From Shigella phage ChubbyThor: 64,000 nt of DNA. How positions within the stretch are numbered: position 1 is the first letter of the stretch; the number at the start of each line of letters is the position of its first letter. Location: sequence record OL615013. One strand, 5' to 3'. Below are positions 22,922 to 35,685 of the stretch, piece after piece. The notes beneath the pieces are model-generated. The model saw only the letters and a program-made list of their open reading frames with translations, was not told the DNA's origin and searched no databases. Made by a program: the position numbers and the translations under genes.

Positions 22922-23607
22922 TGCTGTCGCTCTACCTGATCACGAATCTCGTCAATCATAAATTCTATATCGGTGTCACTTCAGAACCGGATAGGCGGTT
23001 GGCTGAGCATAAGTGTGGTCAGGGGAGCATTGCATTACAACGAGCGTTCAAGAAATATGGTGAAGATCAGTTCAAGTTTGAAGTTCTGTTCCGAGGGAAA
23101 GATTCGGTTATCCTTCAGATAGAGTCTGAACTGGTCTGCCAGGAGATCCTCGATAGCGGGTGGTGTTACAACATGGTCGCCGGGGGTGGGAAGCCTCCAT
23201 TGGCCACGCCAGAGTCATCCGCAAAGAGCGCCGCAACCCGCAAACGTTTGATCGCTGAGGGTAAGATTAAACCTCCACCAAGACTCACCCCTGAAGCACA
23301 AGCCAGAAAGGGTAAGATCATAAGCAAATTGATGTCAGAAGGGAAGATCCCCAAACCACCAAGACCTTCCTCTGAATCTCAAACGCGTGGAGGGGAAACT
23401 AGGAAGAGGCTGCATGCTCTTGGCCTGATAGACATTGGTCCTGGCCGTGATGAAACGATTTACAAATGGCAGCACAAAGATGGTCGCATCGTTGAGTTAA
23501 GGAGGTGTGACATGGAACTTCAATATGGCCTCCCTTCCGGTAATATAACGAATCTCTTGAAAGGTAGGGCTAAAACATGTCTCGGTTGGAGAATATTAAA
23601 TGGCTAA
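22921..23607 (+). CDS. GIY-YIG homing endonuclease (free-standing)
   Basis: N-terminal LYLITNLVNHKFYIGVT...RRLAEHK matches GIY-YIG catalytic module; basic C-terminal DNA-binding region. Confidence 0.7.
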   Translation: MLSLYLITNLVNHKFYIGVTSEPDRRLAEHKCGQGSIALQRAFKKYGEDQFKFEVLFRGKDSVILQIESELVCQEILDSGWCYNMVAGGGKPPLATPESSAKSAATRKRLIAEGKIKPPPRLTPEAQARKGKIISKLMSEGKIPKPPRPSSESQTRGGETRKRLHALGLIDIGPGRDETIYKWQHKDGRIVELRRCDMELQYGLPSGNITNLLKGRAKTCLGWRILNG

Positions 23608-24517
23608 AATAATTGTAGTGAAAGGCACCTCGGCCACGGGCAAGGGTACGAGAGTGGTCCAGTTCATCGAATGGCTCCGTACGAAGCTGGAGCCTACCGA
23701 ACTCACCTACACCATTGGTGGCAAGACGCGCCCGTTTGGCCTGAAATTCGAAGAGCTGAAGTTGATCTTCGTCGGCCAGTACACTGTGTCCAACAAATCC
23801 GGCCTGGCTTCCTGGACTTCCATGGACGCCATTCATGCTGCCACAGGCTCGGGTGATATCGCTCGTGACCTGGTCAAAGGCTGGCTGGCTCAGGGTTACA
23901 CCCTGGTGTGTGAGGGCGAACCCCTCATGCTGTCGGACAAATGGCGTCCTGAGTGGATGTTCAAGAACTATCCGATTGAATCATTGGCGCTGCTGTACTT
24001 TGCGTACCCCGACCGCTATCAGTACGATGCCCGCATCCGTGGTCGCTCTGGTAAAGAAGCAGGGGACTCCGGCTGGTCTCGCAACGAATCTTACTCCAAG
24101 GAGTTTGAGAAGTCGAAGGCCGAAATGCTGGCGCTGGGCTTCACCCCTGTGGTTGACAACTACAGCGGGCAGGATATCCTGTATAAAGCGCCAGAGGCCA
24201 ACACCCAGGAGTTCACGACCAAACAGCAGTCCGAGTTGGCGGTGCTCCCATACGACGCCCCGCTGTGGGTTGTGGGTAATGCGATTTGTCATCAGATACG
24301 GTCCGAACTGCGTGAAGTGAACATGGACACCAAAGACTTCTATGGTTTCTGTGAGACCGACCCAATGACCCGTGAGGTCGGCGGTGATGATCCTTTGGCG
24401 CACAGAGTGCCTGAGAAGCCGCAGAAGGCATCCAAAACTAAAACCAAGGCGAGCGCCCAGCCAGAAGCACCGAAGGCAGCGTCGCGCTCCCTCCTTGACC
24501 TGATGAAGAAGGGGTGA
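23600..24517 (+). CDS. P-loop kinase / NTPase (candidate DNA 5-hydroxymethylpyrimidine kinase)
   Basis: 305 aa; Walker A-like VVKGTSATGKGT at N-terminus; functional assignment inferred. Confidence 0.5.
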   Translation: MAKIIVVKGTSATGKGTRVVQFIEWLRTKLEPTELTYTIGGKTRPFGLKFEELKLIFVGQYTVSNKSGLASWTSMDAIHAATGSGDIARDLVKGWLAQGYTLVCEGEPLMLSDKWRPEWMFKNYPIESLALLYFAYPDRYQYDARIRGRSGKEAGDSGWSRNESYSKEFEKSKAEMLALGFTPVVDNYSGQDILYKAPEANTQEFTTKQQSELAVLPYDAPLWVVGNAICHQIRSELREVNMDTKDFYGFCETDPMTREVGGDDPLAHRVPEKPQKASKTKTKASAQPEAPKAASRSLLDLMKKG

Positions 24518-24717
24518 TCATGAAACGGTTGTCTAATTATCTGTTATTCGTCGGTCTGGTTATGGCAGCCGTTTCAATGTGCGCTGCCCTAGCCTATCAT
24601 TTCACTCCTCTGGACTTAACAACCTCAGAGAAGTTGAACGTGACTGTGATGTACTGTATTGGCGCGGTGATGTCTATCGGCGCTGCTGGTTACAAAATAT
24701 TCAAGGAACCAAAATGA
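24514..24717 (+). CDS. small membrane protein
   Basis: 67 aa with two hydrophobic helices. Confidence 0.4.
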   Translation: MIMKRLSNYLLFVGLVMAAVSMCAALAYHFTPLDLTTSEKLNVTVMYCIGAVMSIGAAGYKIFKEPK

Positions 24718-25070
24718 AAATTCAAATCCCTCGCGATGCTGTGGCTGTCGCAATTGACTACACCGGAAACGCCAAGCACATTACTGCTGTGCGCCTGATT
24801 CCTGAAAAGAACTGCGTGATCCCTCAGTTCCAGCTGAATGCCAACCCGTCGTCTAAAGACTTCGGTCAGTGGCTGCAAGCGGCTCCGTTCCGCACCCAGA
24901 CGAATGCCCAGATGTTCATCTCGGGTAAGACTCACACTGCAGCCCGTCTGTGGTTCGTGACCGCTGACCGTCGCTTTGTCGATATGTGGGAGCGCCCGAT
25001 GGGGTTCGTGAAACCAGAAGACATTCAGCTGGCTCCTGAAGAGGAAGCGAAAGATGACGCATCTATCTAA
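24714..25070 (+). CDS. hypothetical protein
   Basis: ORF track 24579..25070; ATG at 24714 overlaps upstream stop. Confidence 0.45.
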   Translation: MKIQIPRDAVAVAIDYTGNAKHITAVRLIPEKNCVIPQFQLNANPSSKDFGQWLQAAPFRTQTNAQMFISGKTHTAARLWFVTADRRFVDMWERPMGFVKPEDIQLAPEEEAKDDASI

Positions 25071-26280
25071 AATGCCGACGGGATATACACCCCCGGCTGA
25101 ATGGAAGTATCCGATTGACCTGGCTGTTGATTATCGCAAGCCTGAGAATCGCATGTACCTGCTCAAGGCTTGGGTGGAGGCGCTGTCCTACACCGAAGAG
25201 CACAATCAGCAGATGCGTCTGATGGACTATGCTATCGAAGTCACTGAAGGTATCAGCCTCGAACAGAAAGTCGAGCGCAAGATCTGGATGGCATTCCTTT
25301 GGGGTTGTTGCTATAACGCCATCGGTCCATGGACGATCTACAGTGAGTTCCCTGTGCCACCACAGTCCAAAGAAGAGATGCAGCGCTTCTCTGATTGGTA
25401 TAACCTGAACTTTGATCGCATGCGCTTCGATACCGACTGTCGCTACCGCAAGTCGAAGATGATTCCATGTGTTCAGTCCTATATTGACTGGCTGGCTGGC
25501 CGTACTCAATATGACGCTTTCCGTGAGATGCTGGTGTGCATCGATAAAGCAGAACAATTCACTCAGCTGTGGGACACGGCGATGTCCTGGAAATACTTCG
25601 GTCGCCTCAGTGCCTGGAACTTCCTGGAAGCCCTGAACATGGTCTTCGGGGACGAATACACCATTGACGTCCCTGGCTTCATGCTGCGTGACCGTGATGG
25701 TAGCGAGTCCAACCGCAACGGCGCGGCGTTCTTGTCCAACCGTGACGACTGGGTGACCAAGCACGGGAAGAAAAAGATCAACGGTTGTCCTATCACGGAT
25801 GAAGAGTGTGACATCCTTGAGGCCGACCTTGAGCAGGCGTTCCAGGATTGCGTGGCTGAGTTCGGGCATCTGACGTTCATCAATCGCCTGAACTTTGAAA
25901 CCTCCGGCGCATGCTGGCTGAAGAAGTTCTTCCGTGAGAAGAATACCCGTTACATTGGGTGGGATGCCGAGCGTACCTGGGATGAGATCGACTACATGGA
26001 ACGCATCTGGCCGGAGTACTCCTGTGCAGCGCTCTGGGAAGCCCGTTCGCTCTGGCTACCAGATACCCTGTTATGCGAAAAGGCACCTCCAGGGCACGTT
26101 CCAGGCGTTCAGAAGTGGAAGATGCCTGTGTTCTTTGAGACTGGCGTTCCTCTGCACATCTGGCATCTGCAAAAGGGTACGCGCTGGGAGCCTGACCAGG
26201 TGTATCAAGAATTGGGTAAACCGAAGATTGATAAACCGAAGTCCAACAGCGTCAACCTCATGGCACTCTTGAAACGCTGA
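25054..26280 (+). CDS. hypothetical protein (408 aa), candidate base-modifying transferase partner of the kinase
   Basis: Large Trp/Cys-rich ORF immediately downstream of kinase; function inferred from context only. Confidence 0.45.
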   Translation: MTHLSKMPTGYTPPAEWKYPIDLAVDYRKPENRMYLLKAWVEALSYTEEHNQQMRLMDYAIEVTEGISLEQKVERKIWMAFLWGCCYNAIGPWTIYSEFPVPPQSKEEMQRFSDWYNLNFDRMRFDTDCRYRKSKMIPCVQSYIDWLAGRTQYDAFREMLVCIDKAEQFTQLWDTAMSWKYFGRLSAWNFLEALNMVFGDEYTIDVPGFMLRDRDGSESNRNGAAFLSNRDDWVTKHGKKKINGCPITDEECDILEADLEQAFQDCVAEFGHLTFINRLNFETSGACWLKKFFREKNTRYIGWDAERTWDEIDYMERIWPEYSCAALWEARSLWLPDTLLCEKAPPGHVPGVQKWKMPVFFETGVPLHIWHLQKGTRWEPDQVYQELGKPKIDKPKSNSVNLMALLKR

Positions 26281-26312
26281 TATAAATATCCTCGCCTATA
26301 AAGTGAGGATAT
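26281..26312 (+). promoter_or_regulatory. T4-type late-promoter box TATAAATA whose tail forms an SD-sequestering hairpin
   Basis: TATAAATA at 26281-26288; 8-bp stem ATATCCTC (26286-26293) / GAGGATAT (26305-26312); ATG of small ORF at 26317. Confidence 0.4.
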
Positions 26313-26316
26313 TATC

Positions 26317-26484
26317 ATGTTACAAGATCTGTTGGTCTACGCACTTCCGGGTGTGGTTGTTGGATTCATCGCAGGTGCTCTGGTCTTCCGCAAACACGCG
26401 CAAGACGGTGAAGTGATTGTTCAGAAGGGTAAAGACATCCTGGAACAAATCGAAGCCAAACTGGATGAGCTGAAGAAAAAGTAA
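26317..26484 (+). CDS. small protein (55 aa) with N-terminal hydrophobic helix
   Basis: ATG 26317 with GAGGA SD; below ORF-track cut-off. Confidence 0.3.
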   Translation: MLQDLLVYALPGVVVGFIAGALVFRKHAQDGEVIVQKGKDILEQIEAKLDELKKK

Positions 26485-26512
26485 TCTGATTGCGATTGCG
26501 TTCTTCAATAAA

Positions 26513-26550
26513 GGGGAATGGGTTAATATTAGCCCGTTCCCCTTTCTTTT
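26513..26550 (+). terminator. intrinsic terminator
   Basis: 10-bp stem GGGGAATGGG/CCCGTTCCCC followed by TTTCTTTT; preceded by TTCTTCAATAAA motif. Confidence 0.55.
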
Positions 26551-26565
26551 GCAAGGAAATACATC

Positions 26566-26778
26566 ATGGCAATGCAACGAATTGAAGATATGTCCCTACT
26601 GGATATGGAAGCGACTTTTGGTGATTACTTTGAGTCCACTCCGAAACAAAAAGACCCTCTGGTTGGCCGTCTGGTGGTTTCTGAAGCGTTCGCACAGAAA
26701 GTTCGCGAAGGTCTTCCGCCTGAATATGGGTGCTTCCGTAATGGCGCTTCCGTTATCGTCATGGGTGAATCTAAATGA
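26566..26778 (+). CDS. hypothetical protein
   Basis: 70-aa ORF. Confidence 0.4.
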   Translation: MAMQRIEDMSLLDMEATFGDYFESTPKQKDPLVGRLVVSEAFAQKVREGLPPEYGCFRNGASVIVMGESK

Positions 26779-27161
26779 CACAGTCCGAATACAAACAGTA
26801 CCTGTACGATCTGTTCATGAAAGAAACGGATGGTACACTCCATCCTAAGAAAGCCACTATCGTCGTGCTGCATTCACAAGGTGCCCTGTCATTCTCCTAT
26901 CTTTTCAAAGAATTGGATCTGATGGGCATTGAATATAAAAAGCACATTACGCCAGAACGCACTCTGAAGCGCGCAACCGCTCACTGCGTCCATTCAGTGG
27001 CAACTGTTATGTTCCGCCATCACATCACATTTGATGAAGCGCTGGACCCACAGTATCACGAAGAACGCTGGGGACTGTTGTTGCATAACGGTGCCAATCC
27101 TGAGCACAAAGATCAACTCCTTGGGATGACCAAGGCACAACTCGTGGATGGTGTGTTATGA
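26775..27161 (+). CDS. hypothetical protein
   Basis: 128-aa ORF, start overlaps upstream stop. Confidence 0.45.
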   Translation: MTQSEYKQYLYDLFMKETDGTLHPKKATIVVLHSQGALSFSYLFKELDLMGIEYKKHITPERTLKRATAHCVHSVATVMFRHHITFDEALDPQYHEERWGLLLHNGANPEHKDQLLGMTKAQLVDGVL

Positions 27162-28273
27162 TCTATCTCCTGTTTGGTGTGCCATTGATACTGGCCATCC
27201 TGTTTGTGGTCTACCACCGCAAGACCCATGAGCCGAAAGAGACTCTGATTGCGACGGCGATTGTGGTGGTGCTGTCCTGTCTGATTCAGGTCGGGGCTTA
27301 TGCTGCGTTCTCCCTCGGCAGTTCAGGGGACGTTGAGATCCTGAACGGATACGTCACTGGCAAAGAGCGCAATAAGGTGAGCTGCGAGCACTCGTATCAG
27401 TGCAACTGCTACTACACCACATCATGCTCCGGCTCCGGTAGCAGCAAGTCCTGTACCCGTACCCGTCATTGTAGTACCTGCTATGAGCATTCGTATGACG
27501 TGGACTGGGATGTGCTGACGACTGTCGGTAATCTGACAATTGACCGCATTGACCGCCGTGGTCTTGGCCAGCCGCCGCGCTGGGCGCAGGTTCAGATTGG
27601 TGAGCCAGCCGCCCGTGAGCACTCCTACATGAACTATGTGCTGGGCAACAAGGACTCTCTGTTCTCCCGCTCAGACCAGCAGTTTGCTGAGCGCTTCAAA
27701 GACAAGATTCCCAAGTACCCTGAGGTCTATGACTACTATCGTGTCACTCGTGTGCTGAACGTGTCCGGTCTGGCTTTGCCGACCACATACTGGAACGACT
27801 ACCTGAATGATGTTCTGAAGAAGCTGGGCGCGGCCAAGCAGGTGAACATCGTCTGGGTTGTGACATCCGGGCAGCCAGTTGAATATTTCCAGGGCTTGGT
27901 CTATGCATGGGATGGCGGTAAAAAGAACGACGTTATCGTCGTGACCGACATCAGCAAAGACCTGAAGATCAATTGGGGTAAGAGCACTTCGTTCGCTGAT
28001 GGTATGCACAACCGTGAACTTCACTCCCGCAACGGTATGGACCTGACTGGGCATGATATGGGTATCGGCGTCATGACAGACGTTGTCGCCAACATCACCA
28101 AAGGCTACAACCGCGTTGAGATGAAGGAAATGGAGTACCTGAAGTGGCGGGAACTCAAGACCTGGGAAGTTGTGGTTGTTGTTCTGCTGGGCTGCTTGCC
28201 GTTCACCGCAATTTTCATATTGCAGCGAATGGAGTACAATGGTGGCCGTCGTCGTTATCCGTTTAATTTTTAA
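27158..28273 (+). CDS. Cys-rich membrane protein
   Basis: 371 aa; N- and C-terminal hydrophobic helices; cluster CEHSYQCNCYYTTSCSGSGSSKSCTRTRHCSTC. Confidence 0.5.
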   Translation: MIYLLFGVPLILAILFVVYHRKTHEPKETLIATAIVVVLSCLIQVGAYAAFSLGSSGDVEILNGYVTGKERNKVSCEHSYQCNCYYTTSCSGSGSSKSCTRTRHCSTCYEHSYDVDWDVLTTVGNLTIDRIDRRGLGQPPRWAQVQIGEPAAREHSYMNYVLGNKDSLFSRSDQQFAERFKDKIPKYPEVYDYYRVTRVLNVSGLALPTTYWNDYLNDVLKKLGAAKQVNIVWVVTSGQPVEYFQGLVYAWDGGKKNDVIVVTDISKDLKINWGKSTSFADGMHNRELHSRNGMDLTGHDMGIGVMTDVVANITKGYNRVEMKEMEYLKWRELKTWEVVVVVLLGCLPFTAIFILQRMEYNGGRRRYPFNF

Positions 28274-28291
28274 TCAAAAGAGGAAGTAAGA

Positions 28292-28861
28292 ATGTCTCAA
28301 TCTAAGGGTATTGCAACAGGTTGGATCGTTGGTTTGGCTTTGCTGGGTATGGTGATTGTCGGCATCGGCACAGTCATCAGCTACTTCAACGACTTCAACC
28401 GCACCGAACAGCAGGTCAAGAAGTTCAACAAAGACTCAGAGAACTACCTGAGCAACTACACGCTCAAAGTTCAGGAGACGGCGCAGATTCCTGACATGTA
28501 CAAAGACGGCCTGAAGGAAGTGATCAAAGGCACGTTCGAAGGGCGTTATGGCGCTGATGGTTCCAAGGCTGTTATGCAGTGGATCCAGGAGCAGAACATT
28601 CAGTTCGATTCCAGCCTGTACAAAGAGATCCAGGTGGTGATCAGTTCTGGGCGTGATGAATTCCGCATCAGTCAGACCAAGAAGCTGGATATCTGCGCAA
28701 TGTACGAAACCAAGCTGGCTCAGTTCCCTGGTTCGTTGATTGCTGGCATGTTCGGCTACCCACGCATCGATCTTGACAAGACCTGTCAGGTGGTGAGCGA
28801 TACCCGTACCCAGGCTGCGTTTGACGCTGGGGTTCAGAAACCGATCAACTTCAAAGGCTGA
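28292..28861 (+). CDS. membrane-anchored protein
   Basis: 189 aa with N-terminal TM helix. Confidence 0.45.
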   Translation: MSQSKGIATGWIVGLALLGMVIVGIGTVISYFNDFNRTEQQVKKFNKDSENYLSNYTLKVQETAQIPDMYKDGLKEVIKGTFEGRYGADGSKAVMQWIQEQNIQFDSSLYKEIQVVISSGRDEFRISQTKKLDICAMYETKLAQFPGSLIAGMFGYPRIDLDKTCQVVSDTRTQAAFDAGVQKPINFKG

Positions 28862-28865
28862 TATC

Positions 28866-29291
28866 ATGAGCGTGAAACTCACTGAATCACTGACGCTGGA
28901 CCAGCAGCAGGCGCTGTTAGACGAAGTGGTGATCTCTGCTGTCAAACAGGGGATCATCCGTGACGACACACTGATCAACCGCCCGGAGATGATTCATCAT
29001 CTGGCGGTGTGCCTGGGTGAGGCCAGCAACCCTCGCAAGAAGATCCGTATGTTCAAGGGCGGCGTGATCTATCCAAACGGGCGTTTCGGTTTCATTGAAC
29101 CAGTGCTGAAGACCGACGGCACCCCAAACAATAATGGTGGTCATATCAAGACCTCTGTTCCAGTAACGCCGTATACTGAAGGGGTCGATCAGCTGTCTTG
29201 GTTCGAGACAATCAACACCATCTATATCATGGCACCTGACGGAGAGCCTGTTCAGGATTTGCGAGGCGTCAAAGTAGAATCTGAAGACTAA
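28866..29291 (+). CDS. hypothetical protein
   Basis: ORF track 28821..29291; ATG at 28866 follows upstream stop. Confidence 0.45.
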   Translation: MSVKLTESLTLDQQQALLDEVVISAVKQGIIRDDTLINRPEMIHHLAVCLGEASNPRKKIRMFKGGVIYPNGRFGFIEPVLKTDGTPNNNGGHIKTSVPVTPYTEGVDQLSWFETINTIYIMAPDGEPVQDLRGVKVESED

Positions 29292-29307
29292 TCGTTCTTC
29301 AATAAAA

Positions 29308-29341
29308 GGGGATAGGGTATTATTGCTCTATCCCCTTTTTC
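29308..29341 (+). terminator. intrinsic terminator
   Basis: Stem GGGGATAG/CTATCCCC followed by TTTTT; preceded by GTTCTTCAATAAA. Confidence 0.55.
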
Positions 29342-29353
29342 GTGGACAGGAAC

Positions 29354-29722
29354 ATGACAGACAAGCCAAGAAAGATCGCGATTATTGGAGCCGGACTGGG
29401 ATCTCGGTTGATCAAAGTTCTACTGGAAGAGAAGCTGCCAGGAGTTGAGGTTGTGCACATCACTCCCGATGATATCCCGAAGCGTCGAAGTGAATCGGGT
29501 GAACGCATGATCATCTGCGACGAGCTACAGCAGATGCCAGACACCAAGGAATTGATCGCCAAGCTGAAACGACTGGATGAAAGAGAATTACCAGCCGAGG
29601 CCAGCATGCGTGAATTTTACGCCGACCGCCGCTATCAAGAACCCACACGCCTGCGTGGAGCCGCTGCTCACAAACGTCAGGCCGCTAAAATGAAGAATAA
29701 ACGCCGGAGCAAACGCAAATGA
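29354..29722 (+). CDS. hypothetical protein with basic C-terminus
   Basis: ORF track 29342..29722 (GTG); ATG at 29354 likelier. Confidence 0.45.
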   Translation: MTDKPRKIAIIGAGLGSRLIKVLLEEKLPGVEVVHITPDDIPKRRSESGERMIICDELQQMPDTKELIAKLKRLDERELPAEASMREFYADRRYQEPTRLRGAAAHKRQAAKMKNKRRSKRK

Positions 29723-30171
29723 CTACCAAACCAACTTATGAAGAACTGGCGCAGACCGTTCTGACCTTCGACAGCACCCTGAAGAATCTGTACAAGGTGC
29801 TGGGGAATAACCCGACTTCGCAGTCAGGCAACACAGTCAATCTTCTGTTACTGCTGAACCCTCTGTGGGATATTGATGCCACTGTTGCTGCCCTGAAAGA
29901 TCCTGGGGCACAGGAACCGGAGCCGGAGCCAGCCCCTGTATCCACGGGGATTCAGAATTATCTGGAGAACTTTGATGAGTACTCCTTCACCGACCTGCTC
30001 CTGCGTGATATGATCAACGCAGAACGCCGTCGCCAGGAAAAGAACTGTCCTGAAGTTCAGTCTGATGAAGAAATCGAGCAGAGCGTTCGCGAAGGACTGG
30101 AGGCTTCTATAGGCCTGGCTGTGATGATTGTTCAGGCGCTGTCCTATGCTGCCAAGGGGGAAACGAAATGA
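29719..30171 (+). CDS. hypothetical protein
   Basis: 150-aa ORF, start overlaps upstream stop. Confidence 0.45.
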   Translation: MTTKPTYEELAQTVLTFDSTLKNLYKVLGNNPTSQSGNTVNLLLLLNPLWDIDATVAALKDPGAQEPEPEPAPVSTGIQNYLENFDEYSFTDLLLRDMINAERRRQEKNCPEVQSDEEIEQSVREGLEASIGLAVMIVQALSYAAKGETK

Positions 30172-30368
30172 AGAAATCATCTGCGGCTGTTGCTGCTATG
30201 CTAGCGCTGTCAGAAATGGAAATCGTCGCCGCGCATCGTGGTGATGACATGTGGGGGCGTCGTTACACTCAGGGTGGCACACCCGGCGAACCGGGACATG
30301 GTCGTCCATCTGTAACCCGCAAGAAGAAGGCGAAGACCAATGGAAAGAACAAGCGCAAACGTAAGTGA
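30168..30368 (+). CDS. hypothetical small basic protein
   Basis: 66-aa ORF. Confidence 0.35.
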   Translation: MKKSSAAVAAMLALSEMEIVAAHRGDDMWGRRYTQGGTPGEPGHGRPSVTRKKKAKTNGKNKRKRK

Positions 30369-30523
30369 GGAGCGCCTGAAGGATTTGTCCGTTGGCAATC
30401 CCAAGTTAGCCAGATCATGGGTGATGTTTGAAGAAGGTAAGATGATGGCCGACGAGATCATCTTCCTTCGAGCAGAGGTCGCTCGATTAAGTAAAACCGA
30501 ACCCAAAAAGTAGAGGATATGTT

Positions 30524-30871
30524 ATGAGTTCTATTGAACAGCTGATCACCCCACAGTATGTGTACTCCAACATTGTTGAGCATCTGCGCTCACAGTTGAA
30601 CGTGGGAACCCTGAGCAGCACTGACCTGAAAGATCTACAGATCACTGAAGTTGAAGTGGCCGCGTTCGGTAGCCGTTATCACTTCAATGTGGACTACACG
30701 CGTGTAGAAGAGCAGCAGTCCTCTATCATCACACTGGCCACTCCGGTCAACCCTCGCAAAGAGCCTGTGTCAGTCACCCGCACCGTCGTGGGCTATCTTG
30801 AGGAAACCCTTGAGCCTGGGGCAACCCGACCGACATTCAACTTCCAGGCACGATTTGCCACCGAAGATTGA
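30524..30871 (+). CDS. hypothetical protein
   Basis: 115-aa ORF followed by terminator. Confidence 0.45.
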   Translation: MSSIEQLITPQYVYSNIVEHLRSQLNVGTLSSTDLKDLQITEVEVAAFGSRYHFNVDYTRVEEQQSSIITLATPVNPRKEPVSVTRTVVGYLEETLEPGATRPTFNFQARFATED

Positions 30872-30877
30872 TCTGAA

Positions 30878-30903
30878 CAAAGCCCTCAGCCGAGGGCTTT
30901 TTC
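30878..30903 (+). terminator. intrinsic terminator
   Basis: AAAGCCCTC-AGCC-GAGGGCTTT then TTTC. Confidence 0.55.
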
Positions 30904-30977
30904 AATTGAAGCCCACCACAGTATCATACCCACTCAATCAATATGTTTCCCTTTGACATTGATAGGATTTCTATACT

Positions 30978-33734
30978 ATGAAAATGCGCAAGTCCGAGCA
31001 CTTCATCCGCTCGTCGTCTTCCATTCAGGGGCAGGCGTTTAACGTCAAAATGAACGACAAGATGTTTGAGACTCTGTTCTCATCATTGTATCGTTACAAA
31101 GAGGCCGCAGCCCTGCGTGAGACCGTCTGTAACGCCATTGACTCCCATGGCATGCGTGATCGTATGCACCGCATGGTCGCATCCCACTACGCGCCTCTCA
31201 CTCCCCCTCCTGCCCGCCACAGCAAATATCTCGCGCCGAAGGGCACACGAGTTGTTGTGCATTTGCCTGATGACTTTGAGCCATGGCTGGAAATCCGTGA
31301 TTACGGTATCGGTCTGCCGCTTGAGAAGATCATCGGTGAAGCCATCCCAGCGCAGGAAGATGAGGTGCTGCTGGAAGGCAACATGGTCGTGAAGGAAGAC
31401 GAGATCCCCGATTCGGCCGAAGTCATCGGTATTCCAGGGTTCTACAATGGGTCTTTGGTGTTCCGTCGTGAAGACGGCGAGATCATTCGTGCGCCTGGAT
31501 TGTACACCACCCTCTTCCACAGTACGAAGGAAGAAGATGATGATCAGATTGGGGCATTCGGTCTTGGCTCCAAATCACCATTTGCGGTATCGGATTCGTT
31601 CACTGTGGAAAGCCGCATGGATGGTAAACTCCATCGCTTCCTGATGTACCTGAACGCCAAGCGCATCCCGACTGTTGATCTGATCACCAAAGATCTTGAA
31701 ACCCGTGATCCTAAGCCGGAAGACACCGATGAGTTCAACGGCATGACGGTGAAGATCCCGGTGAAGAACGCTCGTTTCTCTGCATTCTCCGATGAACTGG
31801 TCCGTCTTGGTCGTGTTATGCGCCCTGAACAACGCCCGGTTGTTGAGAACGCTTCATACCGCTTCAGCTGGGAAGATATCAGTTATGATTTCAAGGTCAA
31901 CAATACGTACATCCAGCCGAAAGGCCAGGGGAACACCCATTATGCTGTGATGGGCGGCGTGTCATACCCGATTGACCTGGACCAGCTGGACCCGGACACT
32001 GCTTCCATCATGAGCAAGTTCCCGTCGTCCTATACGTTCTTCGAACTCGGCTCGCTGAACGTACCGCCGTCGCGTGAAGACCTGTCGTATGACGAATTCA
32101 CGCGTGAGACGCTCTCTGAGGAGTTTAAGGGCACCGCCAATGCAATCTTGACAGAAAAGATGCGCGACCTGGAGTTGGCGTGTAAGCGTGGTCCTCTTGC
32201 CCTGTATATGGAGAAGGCAAGACTGAGCGAAATGTTCGGCAGCGGGTTCCGTAAGATGGTTGAAAAGGAATACCCGGCGGACAAGCGCTTCCACGATTCA
32301 TATTATCGTTACCCGCTGCCTGTTGAGATTGATCGCGATTATGACCATACCGCTCCGTTCAATGAGCTGTCATCGCCGTTCTCTATGGAGATCTTCTATG
32401 ACTGGGGTGAGTCCAGTACTTTGACCATTTCAGAAATCCAGAAGTGGATTGATCGTGGACAGCATGTTACTGTGGTGATCGAAGATAGTGTTCGTGCACG
32501 TAATCTGAAGATCAAGCAGCTGAAAGATACAGGAACGATGGTCATCGTGGCCAAGCCGAACACATCCTATGTCACCAAGCGCAACCAATCTAAGGACAAC
32601 CCTGCGTTCAATAATTCTCAGGCTCTCTATGATTTCTTTGAAACTTGGATTGGTAAAGAAGAAACGACGGTTGATTATCTGTGCTTCGCTGACAAGTTCG
32701 TCGATTGGCTGAGTGCGGTGCTGGAGCCTGCTGAAGTCAAGTTCATGAACGAACTGACGTATGTCACGCCTCCGGTCACCAAAGACCCTGGCCTGTTTCC
32801 GTTCACGTCCAGCAACTTCGACATAAAACAGTATGAAGAACTGACGGGCGACCAGATCTCAGATATTATCAACAAGGGCGAGCGCATCGTCTACATTGAG
32901 GTGTCTGGCCATGAGTGTATCCATCAGGTGATGGACAGAACGTTGACGGCTGCGGCGGCTCGGGGTATTCGCAAATCTCTGTACGAGCACGCTGTCGGTG
33001 CAGACGATGAAGGCAAGCCAGTGTATATCAGCGACATGCTGAACGTTCACAAGAGGATCTTCTTAGCTCGCCGTAAATCCGTGCCAATGATGAAGAAGTT
33101 TCCAGAGGTCTTCATCCCGATCGATGAAATTCTGAAGATCATGTTGGAAAACGTGAAGCCTATGATGGAGCGCGATAGCGCCAGGCGCATACTGGAATCA
33201 CACCGCCGCATGCGCCTTGGGGCGGACCGATTAAAATACGGGAGCCGTCTGGTTCATCAGGCGTTTGGTGATGTTGAAGATGATCGTTATGGCAAATTGG
33301 TCAGTCGTTACAACAAGTTAATGAAAGTTGTGGACGATATCTTGGATGAGCAGACTATACGTCATTACCAAAGCCTGGCGAAAGCCCCAGTGTCGATCCA
33401 TGATAAACGTCGTTTTAGTCATTTCCAAGACACGATAAGTTCTCTTAACGTGAATTTGTACGCCAACGAGCGTGACGAAAAGATCTTCCGTTCAGAACAT
33501 CAGATGCTACAGATCTTTGGTTACGCTTCGGATGTGTTGCGGTCTCATGGATTTACGCCGTTTGATATATCGAGGACTCCGTCATTGAAAGCAAGGCGGG
33601 AAAACCGATTGACCATTGAGCGTCACCGTGTTATCCGGTTCTTGAAAGAGAATTACAAACCAAGCGCCCTGAACCCGATTGAAAATTCTTCGGATTACTT
33701 GGACGTTATTTCAAATTCCATCATCAGGGCATAA
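30978..33734 (+). CDS. rIIA: rIIA protein (GHKL-type ATPase fold)
   Basis: 918 aa; blocks matching T4 rIIA as recalled: ALRETVCNAIDSH, IRDYGIGLP, GAFGLGSKSPFAVSDSF, LGSLNVPPSREDLSYDEFTRE. Confidence 0.9.
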   Translation: MKMRKSEHFIRSSSSIQGQAFNVKMNDKMFETLFSSLYRYKEAAALRETVCNAIDSHGMRDRMHRMVASHYAPLTPPPARHSKYLAPKGTRVVVHLPDDFEPWLEIRDYGIGLPLEKIIGEAIPAQEDEVLLEGNMVVKEDEIPDSAEVIGIPGFYNGSLVFRREDGEIIRAPGLYTTLFHSTKEEDDDQIGAFGLGSKSPFAVSDSFTVESRMDGKLHRFLMYLNAKRIPTVDLITKDLETRDPKPEDTDEFNGMTVKIPVKNARFSAFSDELVRLGRVMRPEQRPVVENASYRFSWEDISYDFKVNNTYIQPKGQGNTHYAVMGGVSYPIDLDQLDPDTASIMSKFPSSYTFFELGSLNVPPSREDLSYDEFTRETLSEEFKGTANAILTEKMRDLELACKRGPLALYMEKARLSEMFGSGFRKMVEKEYPADKRFHDSYYRYPLPVEIDRDYDHTAPFNELSSPFSMEIFYDWGESSTLTISEIQKWIDRGQHVTVVIEDSVRARNLKIKQLKDTGTMVIVAKPNTSYVTKRNQSKDNPAFNNSQALYDFFETWIGKEETTVDYLCFADKFVDWLSAVLEPAEVKFMNELTYVTPPVTKDPGLFPFTSSNFDIKQYEELTGDQISDIINKGERIVYIEVSGHECIHQVMDRTLTAAAARGIRKSLYEHAVGADDEGKPVYISDMLNVHKRIFLARRKSVPMMKKFPEVFIPIDEILKIMLENVKPMMERDSARRILESHRRMRLGADRLKYGSRLVHQAFGDVEDDRYGKLVSRYNKLMKVVDDILDEQTIRHYQSLAKAPVSIHDKRRFSHFQDTISSLNVNLYANERDEKIFRSEHQMLQIFGYASDVLRSHGFTPFDISRTPSLKARRENRLTIERHRVIRFLKENYKPSALNPIENSSDYLDVISNSIIRA

Positions 33735-35379: not shown

Positions 35380-35685
35380 ATGTTAACCACTGATGTCTAC
35401 TTCAAATATGCCCAGCAAGCATATGGACCACACCGCCGGATAACGAAGTTCCTGATTGACTCTTTCCAATTCGAAGGAGAGACCAGGGAATACTCCCACA
35501 AACAATTCCCTCCCCGTGAAGTGCATGGCGACCAGTTCGTGAAGTTGTTCTGTCGCTGTGGTGGTTGTGACTTCACAGATGATGGGTATGCAATGCACGT
35601 ATACTGCTGCAATTGCTGTGGTAAATACATAACAGTCTATAGGAGAACCAATCATGGCGAAGAAACCCGAAACCAAGAAAGTTGA
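35380..35685 (+). CDS. small Cys-rich (zinc-binding?) protein
   Basis: 101 aa; CRCGGC...CCNCCGKY cysteine cluster. Confidence 0.4.
   Translation: MLTTDVYFKYAQQAYGPHRRITKFLIDSFQFEGETREYSHKQFPPREVHGDQFVKLFCRCGGCDFTDDGYAMHVYCCNCCGKYITVYRRTNHGEETRNQES

Follow-up and report, generated by a model that had tools for sequence, protein, structure and literature searches.

A conserved gene pair in Shigella phage ChubbyThor

We analyzed a 64,000-nucleotide (nt) stretch of DNA from Shigella phage ChubbyThor (sequence record OL615013), referred to here as the window, and focused on the gene at positions 27158-28273, which encodes a 371-amino acid (aa) membrane protein. An earlier note on this DNA, made from the sequence alone, had singled out the protein for a dense run of cysteines. 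We found that the gene is the first half of a strict two-gene cassette that moves among unrelated genomic contexts. The second gene begins 18 nt downstream and, judged by profile comparison, its 189-aa product is a divergent LemA. Moreover, in a predicted structural model, the C-terminal half of the soluble part of the larger protein has the TPM fold. The earlier note had overlooked both this fold and the LemA-like partner directly downstream. The genes and the features of their products are listed in Table 1.

By sequence, the source phage belongs to the Ackermannviridae (Aglimvirinae) and is close to Shigella phages Gloob and Ag3, with 97.5% and 96.6% identity to these phages, respectively, over positions 26700-29300. 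The start ATG of the larger gene shares bases with the stop codon of the gene upstream (..TTATGA..), and homologues of its product can be aligned from residue 1. The Gloob counterpart, gp201, is labeled a 'putative membrane protein', and the copies in cultured phages are annotated as 'hypothetical'. A search of PHROGs matched the protein to phrog_2087 (E 9e-164), an entry of unknown function. Pfam, NCBIfam, and PADLOC gave no match, and searches of PDB sequences with phmmer and with a profile returned only chance matches to cysteine-rich proteins (NKG2, TNFR, and Jagged).

Membrane architecture and cysteine cluster of the larger protein

Hydropathy identifies three hydrophobic helices in the 371-aa protein (aa 1-19, 29-53, and 337-357). 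An AlphaFold2 (AF2) model built on an 83-sequence alignment (pLDDT 92.1, pTM 0.82) has helices at 2-20, 26-54, and 335-361, beta strands at 57-74, 80-91, 98-108, 114-121, and 150-158, and an alpha/beta unit at 199-316. Thus, the terminal transmembrane (TM) helices described in the earlier note are present, two at the N-terminus and one at the C-terminus. How is the protein oriented in the membrane? Across 262 aligned homologues, the average net charge is positive in the TM1-TM2 loop (+0.44) and in the C-terminal tail (+1.07), and it is negative in the two flanks of the central part (-1.42 and -0.70). Because this bias obeys the positive-inside rule, the central ~280 residues are predicted to be periplasmic, a placement that fits the disulfides proposed below. 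The prediction of three TM helices and a large periplasmic part agrees with the suggestion, also made earlier, that this is an envelope protein. We infer both the topology and the disulfides from comparisons across the family.

The whole protein contains nine cysteines, at residues 41, 76, 82, 84, 90, 99, 105, 108, and 346. C41 and C346 lie inside TM helices and are variable among homologues, and the other seven fall within a 33-residue span (76-108). The earlier note had reported nine cysteines in about 35 residues; the dense cluster stands, but nine is the count for the entire protein. Similarly, the cluster had been assigned to a Gly/Ser-rich segment just after the N-terminal TM region. It does begin 22 residues past TM2, but the only Gly/Ser-rich sequence is an 8-residue hairpin loop (SGSGSSKS) between C90 and C99. 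At the cysteine frequency of this DNA, seven cysteines in 33 residues have a probability of ~7e-7 per segment of that length, and ~0.018 such segments would be expected across all open reading frames (ORFs) of at least 100 aa. All seven cysteines, together with H78 and H111, are kept in 177 of the 262 homologues. Since the cluster is beyond chance and its pattern is conserved, we conclude that the cysteine-rich feature is real and non-random once the count is corrected, which partly confirms the earlier observation.

The presence or absence of each cysteine and histidine among the 262 homologues reveals which residues belong together. C82 and C108 are both present in 255 sequences and both absent from 4, while C82 occurs alone in 3 and C108 alone in none. 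For C84 and C105, both are present in 240 and neither in 15, with single occurrences in 2 and 5, respectively. C90 and C99 are both found in 188 and both missing in 60, and they occur singly in 5 and 9, respectively. The strand register of the AF2 model agrees with these pairs (84 + 105 = 90 + 99 = 189; 82 + 108 = 190). Because the cysteines are lost in pairs and the partners face each other in the model, we read the three pairs as a predicted three-rung disulfide ladder across the beta2/beta3 hairpin. The proposal that the protein is disulfide-rich is therefore supported by covariation. We also considered a zinc ribbon or zinc finger, with two CxxC-type knuckles and four co-conserved ligands, and rejected it for this cluster because the losses occur in cross-strand pairs (82/108, 84/105, and 90/99), as expected of disulfides; the beta domain is, in addition, predicted to be periplasmic.

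A separate site may be formed by C76, H78, and H111. H78 and H111 are both present in 254 homologues and both absent from 7, with one and zero single occurrences, and C76 and H111 are both present in 254 and both absent from 4, with four and zero single occurrences. In the model, C76 and H78 (beta1-beta2 turn) and H111 (beta3-beta4 turn) share one end of the sheet, which makes a metal or catalytic site of the Cys-His-His type plausible. To this extent, the conserved triad leaves room for the metal binding suggested in the earlier note, although the bulk of the cluster is better read as disulfides.

A predicted TPM-fold domain and a LemA-like partner

The AF2 model of the larger protein contains the alpha-beta-alpha sandwich with a four-stranded sheet that is seen in TLP18.3, Psb32, and BA41. 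Two motifs are near-invariant in this part of the family, D192-Y193 and W251-x-G-G-K-K-N-D258. A Foldseek search against viral models (BFVD) returned a full-length match to a protein of the Agrobacterium jumbo phage Atu_ph07 (TM score 0.78), and another full-length match carries the name 'TPM domain-containing protein'. As in the TPM family (PF04536: TLP18.3, Psb32, MOLO-1, BA41/BA42, and AscF), the domain is membrane-proximal and predicted to be extracytoplasmic, and its W-x-GGKK-ND-V motif aligns with the canonical TPM stretch wGIGxK..NNGVLL. Unlike that family, the phage protein lacks a significant sequence match, carries a new beta-domain and a TM hairpin in the same polypeptide, and is overwhelmingly viral. 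For the beta-rich domain itself, comparisons with small TM-anchored beta-barrel domains (DUF2500/YhhM, 3q6c; PROPEN_03304, 3rd4) scored below any reliable threshold and, as far as the results tell, these domains have no cysteine ladder.

The product of the downstream gene has the build of a LemA protein, namely one N-terminal TM helix followed by a helical domain of ~150 aa. Aligned by hhalign with 24 bona fide PF04011 proteins, the phage family gave a probability of 96.6% (E 5e-10) over 138 columns. A profile of 44 partner homologues had as its top PDB match 2etd, the only LemA structure, at E 0.0037 over residues 33-162, which is nearly the full length. The protein itself stays under the Pfam LemA gathering score (13.8 versus 26.2 bits), and just 8 of the 44 family members have any Pfam LemA match, the best at E 0.0016. 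In common with the LemA family, the partner has a C-terminal F-P-x-x-x-x-x-x-x-G-[FY] motif; it differs from that family in having its own GRYGxDGSKA motif and an optional disulfide.

The optional disulfide would join C135 and C165, which are both present in 25 of the 44 partner sequences, both absent from 19, and never found singly. The N-terminus is net positive across the family, indicating an N-in orientation, and the helical domain is therefore predicted to be periplasmic and disulfide-bonded. Where the two cysteines are absent, K or R is combined with Y or F in 17 of 19 sequences (KY 10, RY 3, KF 2, and RF 2), and this replacement looks like a cation-pi pair standing in for the disulfide. 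PADLOC gave a weak match of the partner to 'LeoBC' (E 2.7e-4), in which residues 9-112 align with positions 480-567 of a 601-position profile, a region that covers the TM helix and first helix only.

Table 1. Genes and predicted protein features at the locus (positions in the window; aa numbering from the start of the 371-aa protein)
Feature	Position	Strand or location	Description or evidence
Larger gene of the pair (Gloob gp201; LIMEstone1 ORF194; phrog_2087)	27158..28273	+	371-aa membrane protein with three TM helices
N-terminal TM hairpin: TM1 aa ~2-20, basic loop HRKTHEPKE, TM2 aa ~29-53	27161..27316	+	hydropathy, AF2
Predicted periplasmic beta-rich domain, aa 55-190, without a confident known fold	27320..27727	+	
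Cysteine cluster, aa 76-111: putative ladder C82-C108, C84-C105, C90-C99 (beta2/beta3) and C76/H78/H111	27383..27490	+	covariation
Predicted TPM-fold alpha/beta domain, aa ~191-330	27728..28147	+	
C-terminal TM helix, aa ~337-357, and short basic tail (RRR), predicted cytoplasmic	28166..28273	+	hydropathy, AF2
Partner gene (Gloob gp202; LIMEstone1 ORF195; phrog_1383), 189-aa LemA-like single-pass protein	28292..28861	+	profile matches
Amino-acid:DNA transferase gene	25054-26280	upstream of the larger gene	Pfam ADDT, E 1e-60

Distribution and pairing of the two genes

How widespread is this gene pair? A word-indexed protein search detected 455 homologues of the larger protein, and a hidden Markov model scan of 1.84 billion cluster representatives (50%-identity clusters) detected 2158 at E<=1e-3 and 786 at E<=1e-30. 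The gene is encoded in 486 of the 50,697 cultured phage genomes. Carriers include the Ackermannviridae, the T4-like Aeromonas phages phiAS5 and PX29, the 110-115 kb Vibrio phages KIT04 and JSF10 (which we take to be T5-like), Vibrio phage ICP1, the jumbo phages PBECO4, RaK2, RAY, XbC2, and Munch, Acinetobacter phages, Sinorhizobium phage phiM12, and, weakly, Bacillus phage G. Homologues from Ackermannviridae, T4-like, T5-like, and jumbo phages share 35-47% identity, and many of their residues are invariant. Among 185,579 bacterial and archaeal species, each represented by one genome, we found 30 loci, mostly on contigs of metagenome-assembled genomes (MAGs); this count is a lower bound because the scan could detect only sequences that match either of two peptide patterns exactly. 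Given 486 cultured phages against 30 loci in species genomes, the family is essentially viral.

The pairing with the LemA-like gene is nearly invariant. In 79 of 80 loci on viral contigs, it is the next gene downstream and has the same orientation, and the exception is a truncated contig. When all ORFs from 59 loci outside the Ackermannviridae were clustered, only two families were shared, the larger gene (59/59) and the LemA-like gene (58/59); the next clusters were antisense shadow ORFs inside these same two genes. A module of three or more genes was considered and rejected, since all other neighbors are restricted to the Ackermannviridae. The pair is also intact in ICP1 and in 22 of the 30 loci from GTDB species genomes.

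Several individual loci deserve mention. In ICP1 (MW794146), the pair sits between gp30 and gp41 in a block of genes without legacy 'gp' numbers, which suggests that this region is variable among ICP1 isolates. In the isolate genome of Achromobacter anxifer LMG 26857 (NZ_CAHLAR010000005.1), the pair comes right after recA, with an MscS-like channel gene nearby. This rare copy is chromosomal and not part of an obvious prophage. Many of the matches in GTDB MAGs are binned as members of the candidate phyla radiation (CPR; Saccharibacteria, Paceibacterota, Kaiserbacteria, SR1, and Peribacteria) or as Vampirovibrionales, and these CPR and Vampirovibrionales contigs may come from phages of those groups or may be mis-binned viral contigs. 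In SR1 and Peribacteria, the N-terminal region of the protein is longer and its cysteine pattern differs, but the W-x-GGKKNDV motif and the LemA-like neighbor are both kept.

Gene context in the window

The pair is part of a long run of non-structural genes, all oriented in one direction. Upstream of it are genes for a DNA polymerase, a deoxyribonucleotidase, and a thioredoxin, as well as the amino-acid:DNA transferase listed in Table 1. A P-loop kinase-like gene is found at 23600-24517, and its homologue is named 'P-loop nucleotide kinase 2' in RPN242 and 'homing endonuclease' in Gloob. Together, the kinase-like and transferase genes, which lie a short way upstream of the pair, resemble a cluster for thymidine hypermodification. 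Two small predicted membrane proteins are encoded in the same run on the + strand, at 24514-24717 and 26317-26484. One has 67 aa and two hydrophobic segments, and the other, of 55 aa, combines a TM helix with a charged helix. LIMEstone1 ORF187 and ORF191, which occupy the corresponding places in the gene order, are annotated as TM proteins. The run around the pair looks rich in envelope-targeted products. A scan of 24400-31000 for promoters and terminators gave results no better than shuffled sequences.

Two further ORFs are worth recording. An antisense ORF at 27671-28054 (- strand) lies within the larger gene and has an equivalent in 16 distant loci; it is most simply explained as a shadow of the conserved coding frame, not as a gene. 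Elsewhere in the window, an ORF of 101 aa at 35380-35685 (+ strand) fills the gap between two + strand genes. With seven cysteines in 33 residues (..CRCGGCDF..YCCNCCGKY..), its product may be a small zinc-binding protein.

Relationship to the bacterial LemA-TPM operon

For comparison, we reached bacterial reference loci from bona fide LemA proteins retrieved with the 2ETD sequence, and we examined two operons. In both Thermotoga and Neobacillus mesonae, the gene next after lemA (PF04011) codes for a TPM protein (PF04536), with an overlap between the stop of the first gene and the start of the second. The TPM product consists of a signal peptide, a TPM domain, a TM helix, and a Gly-rich tail. 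The phage cassette likewise places a gene for a LemA-type single-pass protein beside a co-directional gene for a membrane-anchored protein with a predicted TPM fold, and in the phage protein, as in the bacterial ones, a TM helix and a basic tail come after the TPM domain. There are also clear differences. The phage protein has a TM hairpin in place of the signal peptide, carries, ahead of the TPM domain, a ~135-aa beta-domain with the putative disulfide staples, and ends without the long Gly-rich tail. Unlike the bacterial proteins, neither phage protein reaches its Pfam threshold, and both have co-varying cysteine pairs. We conclude that the cassette is a relative of the bacterial LemA-TPM operon and a phage-specific variant of a known, functionally unsolved module.

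We therefore propose that the 371-aa protein is the larger subunit of a two-protein, periplasm-facing module of the inner membrane, a bacterial LemA-TPM pair that has been adapted by phages. The protein would be anchored by its N-terminal TM hairpin and C-terminal TM helix and would expose two periplasmic domains, one beta-rich, with three disulfides, a conserved free cysteine, and two histidines, and the other with the TPM fold. Its partner would be a type-II single-pass LemA whose helical domain, with one disulfide, faces the periplasm. We consider this account of identity and architecture very probable.

What might such a module do? The two proteins may assemble into one complex in the inner membrane of the infected cell, and this complex may dock either on a conserved membrane complex of the host or directly on the membrane and stabilize or modulate its target during infection, neither lysing the cell nor joining the virion. 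We propose docking on a host complex because the TPM proteins characterized so far serve membrane complexes as auxiliary or assembly subunits. TPM proteins have been described as auxiliary, adapter, or chaperone-like factors of photosystem II, the acetylcholine receptor, and respiratory complexes III and IV and in PspA operons (PMC13456599; PMC11237479), and a chaperone-like role beside PspA has been proposed from comparative genomics (PMC11237479). We infer the physical complex and its activity by this analogy, and we offer the function, an inner-membrane complex that stabilizes or modulates a conserved component of the host membrane, as a tentative suggestion that could well be wrong. For the explanation as a whole, with identity and function taken together, we regard the case as evenly balanced.

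Several observations weigh against this explanation. Pfam PF04536 had no match at E<=1 to the larger protein or to two of its divergent homologues (on SR1 and Peribacteria MAG contigs), a search of PDB sequences with the family profile returned no TPM protein, and a comparison of the family by hhalign with three TPM proteins of bacterial lemA operons, a shallow alignment, reached a probability of 7.7% (E 0.0045). The TPM assignment thus depends on a predicted structure and not on a solved one. The gene order, TPM-like before LemA-like, is the reverse of that in both bacterial operons examined. The analogy also predicts little because the bacterial LemA-TPM pair is itself functionally unsolved. 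Finally, the conserved residues D192, Q228, N230, K255, K256, N257, and D258, as well as C76/H78/H111, could form an enzyme or ligand site instead of belonging to a scaffold. On the other side, the single stretch that hhalign aligned is the one expected for a TPM protein, with KQVNIvvV..EY..aL..W.GGKK.NDV in the phage family set against TTAQvvVV..EEyAn.lF..wGIGqK.NNGVLL. We found no functional study of phage LemA or TPM genes, or of the bacterial LemA-TPM pairing, in the searchable literature. The CiPGr study (PMC9825161) reports that selz, a phage of the Ackermannviridae, tolerates loss of its 'genes 189-195', and this range might cover the pair, whose members are ORF194 and ORF195 in LIMEstone1.

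Alternative functions of the gene pair

The earlier note had raised superinfection exclusion, in which the pair would act from the periplasmic side to stop genome injection by later phages. The predicted inner-membrane location with periplasmic domains would suit this role, as would a place among non-structural genes and the behavior of the pair as a mobile accessory cassette in otherwise unrelated contexts, including the ICP1 stretch without legacy numbers. However, known exclusion proteins, such as Imm and Sp of T4 and Llp of T5, are small, fast-evolving, and lineage-specific. The family of the larger protein has no similarity to them in PHROGs or Pfam, and its strong conservation spans unrelated phage families whose hosts and entry machineries differ, which would be unexpected of an exclusion factor. 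Homology to a bacterial operon of housekeeping type would be equally unexpected. We found no specific support for exclusion and think it unlikely.

Could the larger protein instead be a periplasmic enzyme? It might act as a TPM phosphatase or nucleotidase, as described for TLP18.3, Rv2345, and BA41, or use Cys-His-His catalysis on a substrate in the envelope or periplasm, with LemA as its membrane anchor or regulator. The seven polar residues of the TPM part named above are near-invariant, C76, H78, and H111 are gained and lost together, and phosphatase or ATPase activity has been reported for some TPM proteins (PMC13456599). However, these activities are weak and disputed or, as in AscF, absent, and metal sites are not conserved among TPM structures (PMC13456599). 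Moreover, the phage protein matches no enzyme family. We judge an enzymatic role to be improbable, to the same degree as exclusion.

Alternatively, the pair may serve counter-defense or buffer membrane stress, keeping the inner membrane energized in the face of depolarizing abortive-infection effectors or phage-induced envelope stress, by analogy with a Psp-type system. The accessory and mobile character of the cassette would fit such a role. In bacteria, the TPM protein YdjH is described as a conserved PspA partner in operons of Firmicutes (PMC11237479), lemA and a TPM gene are induced together when membrane homeostasis is disturbed and under membrane or envelope stress (PMC13236525), and lemA is induced by copper stress (PMC3203883). 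Nevertheless, this evidence is entirely circumstantial, and PADLOC and anti-defense searches gave no match for the larger protein. We hold this role to be quite unlikely.

A role in the virion is suggested by database labels of the partner, which include 'virion structural protein' (the label of phrog_1383), 'putative major capsid protein', and 'major capsid protein', as well as 'lipoprotein', in records such as OL615011 gp202, Pectobacterium phage DU_PP_V, and Vibrio phage phi 3; other records use 'LemA'. By homology the partner is a LemA protein with a TM helix and does not have a capsid fold, so the capsid, virion, and lipoprotein labels look like propagated errors. Both proteins are predicted to be integral to the membrane with periplasmic disulfides, and their genes belong to a non-structural cluster, with genes for DNA polymerase and nucleotide metabolism as neighbors. 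In addition, the virion of one phage, LIMEstone1, was analyzed by mass spectrometry (39 proteins); its ORF173 and ORF174 are flagged as 'confirmed structural protein', whereas ORF194 and ORF195 are not. Virion structural proteins are therefore a highly improbable reading of the pair.

A lysis protein (holin, antiholin, or spanin-like) is just as improbable: TM helices at both ends of a membrane protein would be compatible with one, but 371 aa with two folded periplasmic domains are unlike holins or spanins, as the earlier note had recognized, the homology to a lysis or structural family that would have contradicted that note was sought for the larger protein in Pfam, PHROGs, NCBIfam, and PADLOC and none was found, no endolysin gene is adjacent, and the sole conserved neighbor outside the Ackermannviridae is the LemA-like gene.

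Implications for LemA and TPM proteins

Our analysis has consequences for annotation, since it corrects misleading labels of the partner and gives defensible annotations to phrog_2087 and phrog_1383. It also defines a putative new periplasmic domain, predicted to be stapled by disulfides and to carry a conserved Cys-His-His site. Beyond the phage-adapted LemA-TPM module that we favor, a broader and more speculative idea is that the cassette is a widespread device for envelope homeostasis. Redox or metal sensing by the Cys-His-His site would keep the membrane, or a respiratory or transport complex, working during infection, for example against membrane-depolarizing abortive-infection effectors. 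We think this idea unlikely, but if true it would mean that the LemA-TPM pairing, whatever the organism, has been given a function for the first time. Both proteins are very widespread among bacteria, and the two genomes that we examined show translational coupling of their genes. A compact and highly conserved pair in tractable phages (Ag3, LIMEstone, ICP1, and PBECO4-like jumbo phages) offers a genetic handle on LemA-TPM biology.

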